In this document: piece by piece, positions 20,889 to 60,939 of the stretch | Layout of the letters: the number at the start of each line of letters is the position of its first letter | How positions within the stretch are numbered: the stretch's first letter is position 1 | Assembly (NCBI GenBank): GCA_001793865.1 | Contig: MGIS01000023.1 | Coordinates: 60,137-124,136 of the forward strand | From: Candidatus Wolfebacteria bacterium RIFCSPLOWO2_01_FULL_47_17b | GTDB lineage: Bacteria; Patescibacteriota; Minisyncoccia; UBA6257; JAGOQP01 | Reading direction: 5' to 3' | Length of the DNA stretch: 64,000 nucleotides | The notes under the pieces: generated by a model | Seen by the model: the letters and a program-made list of their open reading frames with translations, nothing else | The model's database searches: none | Told to the model about the DNA's origin: nothing | Program-made: the position numbers and the translations under genes

Positions 20889-22097
20889 TTAGAACGCACT
20901 CGTAAGTTGGTACACCGGCACAATGACCGCGAGCGCGATCGTTCCGATCACTACTCCTATCAGAAGAAGCATAATCGGTTCGATAAAGGTGACCAGTGTT
21001 TTGACCGACATTTCGACTTCTTTCGCATAAAAATCGGCAAGCGTACTCAAGATGCTTTCCAGATGCCCCGATTTTTCCGATATCGCGATGAGGTTTGCCA
21101 CTATTTTGGGAAATACTGTCTCCCGCCGAAATGCTTCCCCTACGGTGAGCCCTTTCGCGATGCCTTCCTGCGCTATCCTTCGTATGGAGTTCCGCAAGTC
21201 CGGCATACCAACCGAGTCCGCGGTCACCTCAAGCGATTCTATAATAGGAAGGCCCGACGACAAAAGAGATGAAAATGTCGCCGCAAAACGCTGAACCGCT
21301 ATATTTCGTATGACTTTTTTTATAACGGGTATGTGGAGCGCGATGTCGTATATCAGCTTTCTGCCCACCATGGTTTTGATGAAAAAGATAAGCGATCCGA
21401 TGGTAATCCCGAAAAAGAGCGTCAAAAGCAACGCGAGGTGATCGCCTATAAAAAGCCCGACCGTAAACACGATCTTCGAAAATCCGGGCGGTTCGAATCC
21501 GCCGGTTGTGAATACGCCTGCGATTTTCGGGAGCGAATAGCTCACCAGCAGTATGAGGATAATGATGGACGCAATAAAAAGAATAACTGGATACGTAAGG
21601 GCTGATTTTATCTTTGAGCGGAGGTCTTTGTCTTTTTCGAGCGATACGCTCACTTCATCAAACACCGTTTCCAGTTTTCCCGATACCTCTCCCGCCTTGA
21701 TCAGATTTACAAATACCGGTGAGAATGACTTGGGATACTTCGCAAACGTTGAATAAAACGGCTTCCCCTTTTCCAGGTTTGCCCGCACTTCCATGAGAAG
21801 ATCTTTGACGGCACGCTTTTCAAAGTCATCCACCAGGATGTTTATCGCCTTGAAGAGATCGGTGCCGACTTTCATCATAAGCGATAGATACTTTGTTATG
21901 AAAATCTTGTCCTGCAGCGTGACTTTTCCTTGGAATAGCTTCGAGAAATCCAGCGAAGTGTTGCGTATTTCCTGCAGAGATACGGGACGCAGTTTTTGCG
22001 CGCTGATTTTAACAAGCGCGTCTGTGGAGTTTGTCGCCTGGAGTATACCTTCAACTATTTTTTGCGATGCATCTAGGGCTTTGTATCGAAATTTCAT
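20889..22097 (-). CDS. pilC: Type IV pilus / type II secretion platform protein PilC (GspF family)
   Basis: Two GspF repeats, 3 TM segments, 402 aa. Confidence 0.88.
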   Translation of the reverse strand: MKFRYKALDASQKIVEGILQATNSTDALVKISAQKLRPVSLQEIRNTSLDFSKLFQGKVTLQDKIFITKYLSLMMKVGTDLFKAINILVDDFEKRAVKDLLMEVRANLEKGKPFYSTFAKYPKSFSPVFVNLIKAGEVSGKLETVFDEVSVSLEKDKDLRSKIKSALTYPVILFIASIIILILLVSYSLPKIAGVFTTGGFEPPGFSKIVFTVGLFIGDHLALLLTLFFGITIGSLIFFIKTMVGRKLIYDIALHIPVIKKVIRNIAVQRFAATFSSLLSSGLPIIESLEVTADSVGMPDLRNSIRRIAQEGIAKGLTVGEAFRRETVFPKIVANLIAISEKSGHLESILSTLADFYAKEVEMSVKTLVTFIEPIMLLLIGVVIGTIALAVIVPVYQLTSAF

Positions 22098-22229
22098 CCC
22101 GTTAGAAATCTGTCACTTACTAGTAATGTATATAGTGTAGCAAAATCACGTTTTATTTTCATTTCTTGTTTAGCTTGAGCAGAAAATTTTTAATAAAATT
22201 TTCTGCCGATGATTTCTAACGGGATTCAT
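22093..22229. repeat. Inverted-repeat cassette copy A: TIRs ATCCCGTTAGAAATC / GATTTCTAACGGGAT; internal AT-rich hairpin; left TIR abuts pilC ATG
   Basis: 15-bp perfect TIRs; internal gcagaaaattt-ttaataa-aattttctgc hairpin; fills the pilB-pilC gap exactly. Confidence 0.8.
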
Positions 22230-22233
22230 ATGT

Positions 22234-59481: not shown

Positions 59482-59799
59482 TTATTTTTCTCCTTTTAGG
59501 ATAATTCGCTCTTCAAAGCCCCCGCGCTCTTCTTTTTTCTTCATTCGAACCTCCTCTACATTCTTGTATTCTGGAAGCATTTTAAGCGCCTCAATCACTT
59601 CAAGCACATCTGCCAGTTCGCTCGGATCACCCGCTTCGCCAAATTCTTGCATTTCTTCCTTCAGCTTTTTGACAAGCTCATCTTTGTACTCTCCCGGAGA
59701 CGCGATGCGCTTCTCGTAGGGAATTTTCTTCGCATCCAGTATTTCGGGAATCTTATCCCGTACAAGCTTATTATACTTTTCCATTTCCGATTCGCTCAA
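59482..59799 (-). CDS. MazG-like nucleoside triphosphate pyrophosphohydrolase
   Basis: KLVRDKIPEI...ELADVLEVI EExxE/D pattern, 105 aa. Confidence 0.55.
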   Translation of the reverse strand: MSESEMEKYNKLVRDKIPEILDAKKIPYEKRIASPGEYKDELVKKLKEEMQEFGEAGDPSELADVLEVIEALKMLPEYKNVEEVRMKKKEERGGFEERIILKGEK

Positions 59800-60805
59800 G
59801 GTGTTTTATAAGCGTCGTCACATAGCCGTACTCGTTATCGTACCATGCGAGTACTTTTACGAGATTTCCGTCTATTACTTTAGTAAATTTCGCGTCCACG
59901 ATGGACCCGTATGGCATACCGACGATGTCGGATGATACGATCTGATCCTCGGTATAGCCAAGTATGCCGCTCCACCGTTCCGATCCCGCCGCTTCTTTCA
60001 AAAGAGCATTTATTTCTTCAACGGACGTTTTTTTCTTTGCTATGAATGTAAGATCAACAAGCGATCCCGAAACTACAGGTACCCGTATCGCGATCCCGTC
60101 GAATTTTCCATCCAAATCGGGGAGCGCGCGGCTGACCGCTTTAGCGGCGCCCGTCGTTGAGGGCACAATATTTTGCGCGGCAGCGCGGCCGCGTCGATAG
60201 TCATCCCCTTTTACGGGTCCGTCCACAATACTTTGCGTAGCGGTATACGCGTGCACCGTGCTGAGCACCGCTTTTTCAATCCCAATTTTTTCACTAAGCA
60301 CTGCCATAACCGGTGACGCGGCGTTTGTTGTGCATGACGCATTGGATGTAATCTGGCACGTTGGAATTCTATCTTCGTTTATGCCTATTAAAACTGTTTT
60401 GCCTCCGCCAGCTGGCGGATCACCATCGGGATCTTTCGCGGGAGCGGTTAGAAGCACCCGTTTTGCCCCCGCGTCCAGATGGACTTGTGCCTTTTCGAAT
60501 GATTCAAATGCGCCCGTGGCCTCAACCACCACATCCACGCCAAGCGATCCCCATGGAAGCTTTGATGGGTCTTTTTCATTTAGAAACTGTATCTGCTTGC
60601 CATCCACAAAGAGCAGGCTTCTGTCCGCGTCTGCTTTCACCTCATGAACCCATGTTTTATATACGCTGTCGTACTTTAAGAGGTAGGCAAGGTTGGATAC
60701 ATCGCCAAGATCGTTTATAGCGACCACATCGATATTTTTATTATTATAGGCGGCTCTAAAAAAGAGGCGTCCGATACGGCCAAAACCATTTATTGCGATT
60801 TTCAT
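59771..60805 (-). CDS. gap: Glyceraldehyde-3-phosphate dehydrogenase; contains in-frame palindrome-encoded insertion DPDGDPPAGGG
   Basis: NGFGRIGR Rossmann, SNASCTTN catalytic Cys, 344 aa. Confidence 0.93.
   Translation of the reverse strand: MKIAINGFGRIGRLFFRAAYNNKNIDVVAINDLGDVSNLAYLLKYDSVYKTWVHEVKADADRSLLFVDGKQIQFLNEKDPSKLPWGSLGVDVVVEATGAFESFEKAQVHLDAGAKRVLLTAPAKDPDGDPPAGGGKTVLIGINEDRIPTCQITSNASCTTNAASPVMAVLSEKIGIEKAVLSTVHAYTATQSIVDGPVKGDDYRRGRAAAQNIVPSTTGAAKAVSRALPDLDGKFDGIAIRVPVVSGSLVDLTFIAKKKTSVEEINALLKEAAGSERWSGILGYTEDQIVSSDIVGMPYGSIVDAKFTKVIDGNLVKVLAWYDNEYGYVTTLIKHLERIGNGKV
60403..60418. repeat. 16-bp palindrome TCCGCCAGCTGGCGGA inside gap coding sequence
   Basis: Exact match; reads DPPAGGG in frame. 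Confidence 0.85.
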
Positions 60806-60939
60806 CCCGTTAGAAGTTTATCCTTATATAATCAATGATTATTTTCAGAAAACTTAGTTTTTATCTGATATCCCGCATTCTACGCGCTGAGAAAAATTTT
60901 TCAAATTTTTCTCAGCCAAGAACTTCTAACGGGATTCAT
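60801..60939. repeat. Inverted-repeat cassette copy C (TIRs ATCCCGTTAGAAGTT / AACTTCTAACGGGAT with covarying G), abuts gap ATG; internal 14-bp perfect AT-rich hairpin
   Basis: gctgagaaaaattt-ttca-aatttttctcagc internal hairpin; fills the pheS-gap spacer. Confidence 0.8.

Follow-up and report, generated by a model that had tools for sequence, protein, structure and literature searches.

A 64,000-nucleotide stretch of the genome of Candidatus Wolfebacteria bacterium RIFCSPLOWO2_01_FULL_47_17b (contig MGIS01000023.1, positions 60,137 to 124,136; hereafter the window, numbered from its first letter) contains three copies, A, B and C, of a sequence with inverted ends that stops exactly at the start codon of the gene behind it. 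What kind of sequence occupies such a position, and how does the gene behind it remain in use? An earlier interpretation of the DNA (the sequence-only reading) had offered either a miniature inverted-repeat transposable element (MITE) with a preference for the vicinity of ATG or a cis-regulatory module between cistrons. The first of these is supported here and sharpened by a 2-bp duplication, an element-borne AT that rebuilds the ATG, hundreds of copies, empty sites, tandem insertions and a coding partner. We conclude that A, B and C are probably non-autonomous, MITE-like members of a mobile family that targets start codons and is widespread in Patescibacteria (the candidate phyla radiation, CPR); on our best reading, they are not a host regulatory module, a terminator or a promoter.

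Three copies with a common layout

Read on the plus strand, all three copies run from ATCCCGTTAGAA to TTCTAACGGGAT, which form perfect 12-bp inverted ends. The window contains six exact matches to the 12-mer, always within one of three inverted pairs, against a chance expectation of about 0.008 matches (simple arithmetic for 128 kb, both strands). All genes neighbouring the copies lie on the minus strand, and in the sense of their mRNA each copy reads: upstream gene, ATGA, ATCCCGTTAGAA, 81 to 108 nt, TTCTAACGGGAT, GAAA. The left end abuts the CAT (ATG on the minus strand) of the open reading frames (ORFs) at 20889-22097, 54416-54604 and 59771-60805, all of which open ATG AAA, and a 2-bp direct repeat, GA, stands on both sides of every copy. 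The three copies with common ends and their position at ATG-AAA starts, as the sequence-only reading described them, are confirmed. Its distance of 5-7 nt between the upstream stop and the right end has to be corrected: the 16-nt TTCTAACGGGATTCAT ends 4 nt from the pilB stop and 6 nt from the pheS stop, and the 12-bp end lies at 8 and 10 nt, respectively.

Copy A (22096..22225, 130 bp; this and all following features of the copies are on the minus strand) lies between pilB (T2SSE) and pilC (T2SSF, E 1e-52, ORF 20889-22097). Its 12-bp ends are at 22214-22225, which is 5' in the mRNA sense, and at 22096-22107. The old start, ATGA at 22226..22229, consists of AT and the left GA copy (22226-22227) and lies 4 nt downstream of the pilB stop codon (22234-22236). 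The rebuilt start, ATGA at 22094..22097, joins the terminal AT of the element (22096-22097) to the right GA copy (22094-22095), so that the pilC ATG is 22095-22097. Copy C (60804..60935, 132 bp; ends at 60924-60935 and 60804-60815) is arranged in the same way between pheS (60946-62094) and gap (59771-60805). Its old ATGA is at 60936..60939 (left GA 60936-60937), 6 nt downstream of the pheS stop codon (60946-60948), and its rebuilt ATGA at 60802..60805 combines the terminal AT (60804-60805) with GA (60802-60803), giving the gap ATG at 60803-60805.

Copy B (54603..54707, 105 bp; ends at 54696-54707 and 54603-54614) has its old ATGA at 54708..54711 (left GA 54708-54709) and its rebuilt ATGA at 54601..54604, from the terminal AT (54603-54604) and GA (54601-54602). 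The gene behind it, probably rpmB (54416-54604), encodes a 62-amino-acid L28-like protein; the rpmB label given earlier is favoured by an alignment that runs from end to end, but the Pfam L28 match is below threshold (E 0.043). The upstream genes pilB and pheS were correctly named for A and C, whereas copy B has no protein gene directly upstream: 330 nt without one separate it from the next ORF, ndk. A sub-threshold match to 6S RNA (54720-54838, minus strand; 24.2 bits vs a gathering score of 46.4, E 0.008, full model) adjoins copy B on its upstream side, in the interval that separates ndk from the L28-like gene.

The upstream end of each copy opens with ATGAATCCCGTTAGA, read as MNPVR..., from the old ATG, so the tiny ORFs seen earlier do exist. 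They stop after 19 codons in A (MNPVRNHRQKILLKIFCSS and a stop, 22170..22229), 18 in B (MNPVRNLGINDFLNGICI and a stop, 54711 down to 54655) and 12 in C (MNPVRSSWLRKI and a stop, 60939 down to 60901). At 105-132 bp and with only these vestigial ORFs of 12-19 codons, the copies have the size of MITEs, which are shorter than about 300-500 bp and have no complete transposase ORF. Their interiors align poorly (mean column identity 72%, mostly contributed by the ends). Copies A and C can be aligned with counterparts in Kaiser-, Jorgensen- and other CPR genomes and are thus not private to this one. This subfamily has in common a 5' hairpin, GGCA-GAAAAATTT...AAATTTTTC-TGC, and a 3' end in ...ACAGAC; across genera both sides of the hairpin stem have changed, as judged by eye without a formal count. 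The AT-rich hairpins that had been called terminator-like are present in A (13 bp, 22178..22207) and in C (14 bp, 60886..60916, aligning with those of copy A and other genera), but neither has a T-tract or is scored as a terminator, and the terminator reading is dropped. Consensus scans of A, B and C gave no terminator-like site and one promoter-like site, in C, at chance level. A whole-window Rfam search had no match at the three sites at the gathering threshold, and searches of each copy at E up to 1 returned only spurious microRNA- and sRNA-type matches far below threshold.

Target site and duplication across Patescibacteria

The short form was sought in one genome per species as both 12-mers separated by 80-110 nt, with the flanks left free. 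It was found in at least 120 genome stretches, nearly all from named Patescibacteria lineages, including Saccharibacteria, Nomura-, Kaiser-, Jorgensen-, Zambryski-, Levyi-, Moran- and Kerfeldbacteria, Paceibacterota and others. A second flank-free scan retrieved a long form, described below, from at least 120 metagenome stretches with the same junctions (ATGA/.../GAA, slashes marking the element boundaries), and the shared ends occur in at least 240 loci from many lineages. The inverted ends of the family are perfect over 12-14 bp (ATCCCGTTAGAR..YTCTAACGGGAT), and the flanks of the listed copies follow the pattern ...ATGN/element/GNA.... Neither size class had a match in 2.9 million viral contigs (IMG/VR).

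The flanks define the target. Exactly one end whose terminal AT joins a G to open an ORF of at least 50 codons is found in 233 of the 266 pooled short and long copies (88%), which is the relation to start codons that the sequence-only reading had proposed to look for in relatives. The left flank is ATG-N in 170 of 221 listed copies, the two bases outside both ends are identical in 172 (GA 140, GG 24, GT 5, GC 3; no TA), and the base after the duplication is A in 208. The rebuilt ATG opens an ORF of at least 61 codons in 118 of 127 cases. An upstream stop overlaps the old ATG, as ATGA, in 37 cases and lies between a 1-nt overlap and 6 nt before it in 59 further ones. The insertion motif is therefore AT/GN/A, mostly ATGAA, with consensus AT/GA/A and a 2-bp duplication. 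It is a start codon in operons whose genes are closely packed, and often it is the ATGA in which the stop of one gene overlaps the start of the next.

Variant ends, ACCCCG...CGGGGT, change as an inverted and not as a direct pair, so that the terminal AT is part of the element and not of a 4-bp duplication. Owing to the terminal AT of the element, AT+GA at the right junction reads ATGA, and the host gene keeps an ATG. The left junction retains the old ATGA, that is, the old start and, where both overlapped, the stop of the upstream gene. At the level of sequence, the geometry of insertion is neutral for both neighbouring coding sequences.

Empty sites, tandem copies and shared sites

Gap homologues 74-86% identical to that behind copy C keep the pheS-gap synteny. 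In one of these loci, L248 (gap 79% identical, pheS upstream), the site is empty: its junction reads ...AGATAAcctt/ATGAAT, that is, the pheS TAA, 4 nt and the gap ATG. The counterpart in the window is ...CGATAAagacatATGA, the element and GAAAAT, or TAA-AGACAT-ATGA, the element and GAAAAT. A search for such empty sites had been suggested along with the original description. Three other gap relatives have unrelated pheS-gap spacers of 44-99 nt in which the motif is absent. At the copy A locus, three pilC relatives (70-81% identical) have pilB-pilC spacers of 54-126 nt, also without the motif. The corresponding spacer of the window genome would have been only 4 nt before insertion, so this junction itself differs between lineages. 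In the element-free relatives L250-L252, TATACT/TATAAT boxes stand just before the pilC ATG. An exact-protein look-up of the window Gap returned only two short contigs of the same organism, both bearing the element. Among further loci with orthologues 65-77% identical, some are empty and others occupied.

Two copies about 95% identical lie 6 kb apart in L041, before different genes. Tandem insertions of the form ...CGGGAT-GA-ATCCCG... are present, which means that the rebuilt ATGA was itself re-targeted; degenerate, nested and solo ends occur as well. Repeat hits on one rebuilt start were seen in L043 (3900-4160, minus strand), L141, L199, L209 and L044 (7263-7576), arranged as element-GA-element, as a long element with a solo left end behind it, or as a short copy inside a decayed one. 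The gene pilC is occupied in the window and, by another subfamily, in a Saccharibacteria genome, and one orthologous gene is occupied at its start codon in five genomes (L050, L105, L060, L095 and L072) by five interior subfamilies.

The window also holds a solo variant end, ACCCCGTTAGAA (27542-27553, minus strand), about 310 nt upstream of the 16S rRNA gene; behind this end come a GC-rich hairpin (AGCCGCCTC-TATT-GAGGCGGCT) and a T-run. The ACCCCG/CGGGGT variant to which it belongs forms complete elements in loci L043 and L097.

A long form encoding a GIY-YIG nuclease

Among stray half-sites, we found pairs of 270-280 bp with ends ATCCCGTTAGAG...CTCTAACGGGAT. In L100, this long form reads ATGA/ATCCCGTTAGAGAC...GTCTCTAACGGGAT/GAAA and is a single ORF, MNPVRDDEYYYVYVL...KRFLSLTG and a stop, which starts at the flanking ATG and whose TGA overlaps the ATG of the downstream gene. 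Family-wide, the long form measures 276-283 bp, has the ends of the short form and carries as its sole gene a Slx1/YhbQ-type GIY-YIG nuclease of 93-95 amino acids. The first codons (MNPVR) and the last codons (FLSLTG) of this gene are the inverted ends themselves, and the ORF usually starts at the old ATG of the host and ends in a TGA that overlaps the rebuilt one. The ORF is co-oriented with the host gene in 94 of 96 oriented long copies and intact in 80 of them. Gene calls in one widespread organism illustrate the packing: the upstream gene ends at 1996, the GIY-YIG gene occupies 2001-2288 and the next gene runs from 2285.

The encoded protein consists of the catalytic domain (PF01541, E 1e-16) and one C-terminal helix, and Y13, Y24, G26, R32, E70 and N84 are invariant in 40 sequences. 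The protein database contains at least 2296 homologues; among the best 120, 89 start with MNPVR and 95 end with LSLTG. They come from Patescibacteria and are labelled by their sources merely as 'GIY-YIG nuclease family protein'. The nearest solved relatives are the UPF0213 proteins 1zg2 (E 7e-10) and 1ywl and, by fold, Slx1 (TM about 0.6). Slx1, YhbQ and YazA all belong to one family of structure-selective nucleases (PMC7017083).

In about 1.7 Mb of loci, 163 inverted pairs measure at most 175 bp, 125 measure 260-290 bp and none has another size, and neither other cargo nor a larger autonomous element with the same ends was seen there. Short and long forms have only 18-31 nt at their ends in common and interiors without homology, as is the case for MITEs and their autonomous partners. 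Both forms also bear an asymmetric subterminal CCT at the gene-proximal end, which appears as a 4-nt bulge in the fold. This mark is proximal in 88 long copies and inverted in one, and proximal in 49 short copies and inverted in seven; the window copies are without it.

The one GIY-YIG ORF of the window (11147-11404, minus strand; 85 amino acids, PF01541, E 2e-14) has no inverted-end motif. A tRNA-like fragment precedes it (about 11413-11480) and tRNA-Ser (11039-11126) comes next; the ORF is possibly an insertion of the homing type into a tRNA locus. A group I intron (8464-8703, minus strand; Rfam RF00028, 77 bits) lies between tRNA-Arg (7877-7949) and tRNA-Pro (8777-8849).

Pairing between the ends

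That each end matches its own partner best was already apparent from the three window copies and extends to the whole family. Pairing with the own partner continues beyond the 12-mer for 3, 4 and 3 bp in A, B and C (ATC/GAT, ATTT/AAAT and GTT/AAC, respectively), so that 15-16 bp are paired in every window copy. Positions 13-14 are Watson-Crick complementary to the own partner in 116 of 128 copies through seven pair types (AT, GC, GT/AC, AA/TT, AC/GT, CC/GG and TT/AA), and the mean extension beyond the ends is 2.36 bp with the own partner vs 0.92 bp with other copies. In the long-form protein, residue 6 and residue -4 covary accordingly (D/S 79, A/A 10, G/P 2, E/S 1; four exceptions). Because the covariation is kept though both protein termini change, the complementarity of the ends is, on this evidence, selected at the DNA or RNA level. 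On the mRNA strand, G-U-type (8) and A-C-type (7) mismatches at positions 13-14 are equally rare, so that covariation cannot tell RNA from DNA pairing.

The predicted end-to-end stem spans 15-16 bp in A and B, and in C 14 bp (centroid structure) or 18 bp with its extension (minimum free energy structure); in mRNA it contains the AU of the downstream AUG. Folding energies of whole elements range from -37 to -48 kcal/mol (z -6.5 to -7.9). The proposal that the ends pair as an RNA stem hiding the AUG is thus matched by prediction, but the covariation is not specific to RNA. Two abutted ends make up a near-palindrome of 26 bp with 2 bp at its centre.

Translation of the genes behind the element

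In 32 of 100 short copies, an ORF that begins at the old ATG runs as far as a stop that meets or adjoins the new one, compared with 7.1 +/- 2.5 after shuffling (2000 shuffles, maximum 18). The stop is a TAA inside the right end (TTC TAA CGGG ATG) in 26 copies and a TGA overlapping the new ATG in six, and the frame from which a fusion with the host protein would result is open in 0 of 27. In orthologous copies such as those of L025 and L078, the sequence has diverged almost fully, with equal length and the open frame kept.

The 16S rRNA gene of the window (25672-27228, minus strand) has the 3' tail ...GCGTGAAACAATTAC, without a CCUCC anti-Shine-Dalgarno. A Shine-Dalgarno (SD)-like word precedes only 8 of 54 long window ORFs, and in many of the genes TATACT/TATAAT stands 6-10 nt ahead of the ATG. 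From its sequence, the window genome looks like a leaderless, SD-independent translation regime. Two ways of starting at the rebuilt ATG were rejected. SD-driven initiation fails because the organism has neither an anti-SD tail nor SD motifs. A leaderless promoter is improbable because the fixed bases at -12..-7 (ATTTCT/ACTTCT) are unlike the TATACT boxes of the genome.

Proposed mechanism and alternative explanations

We propose that the long form would be the autonomous element, with a nuclease that cuts the ends or the target with a 2-nt stagger, and that the short forms would be mobilized in trans. A 2-nt stagger is characteristic of the cuts made by GIY-YIG enzymes such as I-TevI and Eco29kI and agrees with the 2-bp repeat. 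This agreement suggests the GIY-YIG protein as the mobilizing nuclease, as do several other observations: it is the only cargo seen, the ends lie within its coding sequence, its relatives cut branched or hairpin DNA, and the near-palindrome of the abutted ends would suit a homodimer. For expression of the host gene, a ribosome would start at the old ATG, in its native context and often coupled to the upstream gene, and would translate the GIY-YIG ORF or its remnant, opening the end-to-end stem in which the AU of the new AUG lies. It would then terminate at the TAA or TGA beside that AUG and re-initiate. Such a translational relay would keep the host gene expressed and would fit an SD-less host with many leaderless-type starts. 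It is possible, and we put this forward tentatively, that the window copies are footprints of an unrecognized class of DNA transposon whose sole protein is a 94-amino-acid Slx1/YhbQ-type GIY-YIG nuclease and which inserts into ATGA with a 2-nt stagger, takes over the start and relies on the relay. No description of the element was found in the open-access literature, searched by sequence, by peptide, by GIY-YIG with CPR or MITE topics and by UPF0213/YhbQ/COG2827, with paywalled work outside the scope; the earlier impression that no equivalent has been described is consistent with this result.

Several points weigh against these proposals. Transposition and nuclease activity of the family are inferred from sequence, and we know of no precedent for a DNA transposon whose only protein is a 94-amino-acid GIY-YIG domain unaccompanied by a separate DNA-binding domain. 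No GIY-YIG gene bearing these ends is present in the 64-kb window. All three window copies have lost the through-ORF, and the relay therefore cannot explain translation of pilC, the L28-like gene and gap, where only its stem-melting part, the melting of the 5' arm, could apply. Both collection scans demanded AT at both ends and fixed size ranges, so that other ends and sizes were sampled only as secondary copies, and the ATG preference may partly reflect selection on survivors rather than the insertion machinery. Finally, the start codon of one orthologous gene can be occupied in distant genomes by different subfamilies. Either these sites are hot spots or the insertions are very old and their interiors have turned over; such shared occupancy could mean long retention and hence some host function.

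Host function is the core of the main competing idea, a cis-regulatory intercistronic module in which an mRNA stem hides the downstream AUG, sets the ratio of neighbouring gene products or marks a site at which processing yields an mRNA with no leader or a short one. In its favour are the very high predicted stability of the stems, which take in the AU of the AUG, the occupancy of the same orthologous genes in distant genomes, the retention of through-ORFs above chance and an internal hairpin conserved across genera with both stem sides changing. With no anti-SD tail or SD motifs and many leaderless-looking genes, a cut at the stem base would also yield a translatable 5'-AUG. Yet the downstream genes are unrelated (pilC, the L28-like gene, gap and hundreds more), and the closest relatives lack the element at pheS-gap and pilB-pilC, with pilC there having its own TATACT-type start. 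No Rfam family, terminator or promoter signal was recognized, and the mRNA strand shows no excess of G-U-type over A-C-type mismatches. The 2-bp duplication, the tandems, the degenerate and solo ends and the nuclease-coding version are hallmarks of mobile elements. We consider the module, which the sequence-only reading had entertained, distinctly unlikely.

If the sequences are mobile, the enzyme that moves them could still be an unlinked transposase or recombinase, with the GIY-YIG ORF as a passenger or addiction-type cargo. Inverted ends with a short duplication are the signature of DDE transposases, and a 2-bp duplication is generally known from IS630/Tc1-mariner elements; GIY-YIG-only transposition is without a known example, and the window itself has short copies with no GIY-YIG gene that carries their ends. 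This account is rather unlikely in our view. The duplication is GN and not TA, the 2-nt stagger established for GIY-YIG enzymes equals the 2-bp repeat, and the 1.7 Mb of loci show two size classes and no larger element with ATCCCGTTAGA ends. The ends, moreover, belong to the GIY-YIG coding sequence and covary with it across hundreds of diverged copies. That the copies are ordinary conserved spacers or chance palindromes, native to each operon and of no common origin, is excluded: their intergenic position is all that recommends it, against six exact 12-mers in three inverted pairs where about 0.008 matches are expected, the same ends in hundreds of loci from many phyla-level lineages, and unrelated spacers in close relatives.

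Relation to known systems

The start-codon-targeting family most resembles known MITEs. Judged on sequence, the window copies have their size, inverted ends, duplication, multiple copies, polymorphism and ends in common with a coding element. Like Correia (Neisseria), ERIC (enterobacterial) and RUP (pneumococcal) elements, they are non-coding, about 100-150 bp long and able to form a long mRNA hairpin from their inverted repeats, with a short target duplication, many intergenic copies in operons and presence or absence between relatives. Unlike these, the family targets the start codon (ATGAA), rebuilds the ATG with its AT end, duplicates GN rather than TA and has a coding relative with a GIY-YIG nuclease in place of a DDE transposase, and one-third of its copies keep a through-ORF. 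IS630/Tc1-mariner MITEs also have inverted ends and a 2-bp duplication; membership was rejected because that duplication is strictly TA, whereas GA, GG, GT and GC occur here, and no DDE transposase with these ends was seen. Rickettsia palindromic elements are likewise palindromic, mobile and at home in reduced genomes, and leave the host frame undamaged, but they lie inside ORFs and are translated within the host protein, whereas the present family lies before the ORF and has a fusion frame open in none of the 27 cases mentioned.

Free-standing GIY-YIG homing genes (phage T4 seg, I-TevI-type) are similar in being selfish nuclease genes between host genes with overlapping stops and starts, and the 2-nt stagger of their cuts fits the 2-bp repeat. 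They possess a separate DNA-binding domain and one cognate allele, and have no inverted ends, duplication or MITE derivatives; the long-form protein, in contrast, is a 94-amino-acid catalytic domain alone, with inverted ends and many unrelated loci. The nuclease domain is present in the long relatives and absent from the window copies; assignment to this class was rejected, since neither a separate DNA-binding domain nor a single cognate site was found. Slx1, YhbQ and YazA (UPF0213) are the closest matches of the long-form protein in sequence and fold, and the cutting of branched and stem-loop DNA by Slx1 suggests action on the hairpin or cruciform formed by the inverted ends. The long-form protein differs in having no PHD or zinc-finger domain and no Slx4 partner, and the inverted ends encode N- and C-terminal tails peculiar to the family. 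We know of no mobile behaviour of YhbQ or YazA.

Integron attC sites share imperfect palindromes of 57-141 bp, AAC/GTT end triplets, bulges that give polarity and promoterless cassettes in one orientation. They were rejected because the core order is reversed (GTTAGAA...TTCTAAC here vs 5'-RYYYAAC...GTTRRRY-3'); the repeats of the present family, furthermore, flank the ORF rather than follow it, and a 2-bp duplication is present. IS200/IS605-type elements have subterminal hairpins and lack the terminal inverted repeats and duplication found here, a resemblance to Xer sites failed on a defining feature, and an intrinsic terminator or sigma-70 promoter cassette was discarded, as there is no GC-rich hairpin with a T-tract and no -35/-10 above chance.

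Significance for Patescibacteria

Some consequences are practical. Hundreds of 'MNPVR...' GIY-YIG proteins have been annotated by gene callers, and starts are mis-set around the elements. The 12-mer is a sharp marker of CPR DNA, with none in the 2.9 million viral contigs. If our reading holds, a selfish element colonizes genomes almost without intergenic DNA by way of ATGA(A), the one short motif where an insertion regenerates both the upstream stop and the downstream start. It may also represent a new transposition chemistry, with a minimal GIY-YIG nuclease perhaps acting on hairpin or abutted inverted ends, and would offer a natural, testable example of how translation is coupled across an inserted ORF where bacteria lack SD pairing. 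Should the reading as a new transposon class prove true, such elements would be able to spread at almost no cost through the gene-dense, SD-less genomes of the CPR.

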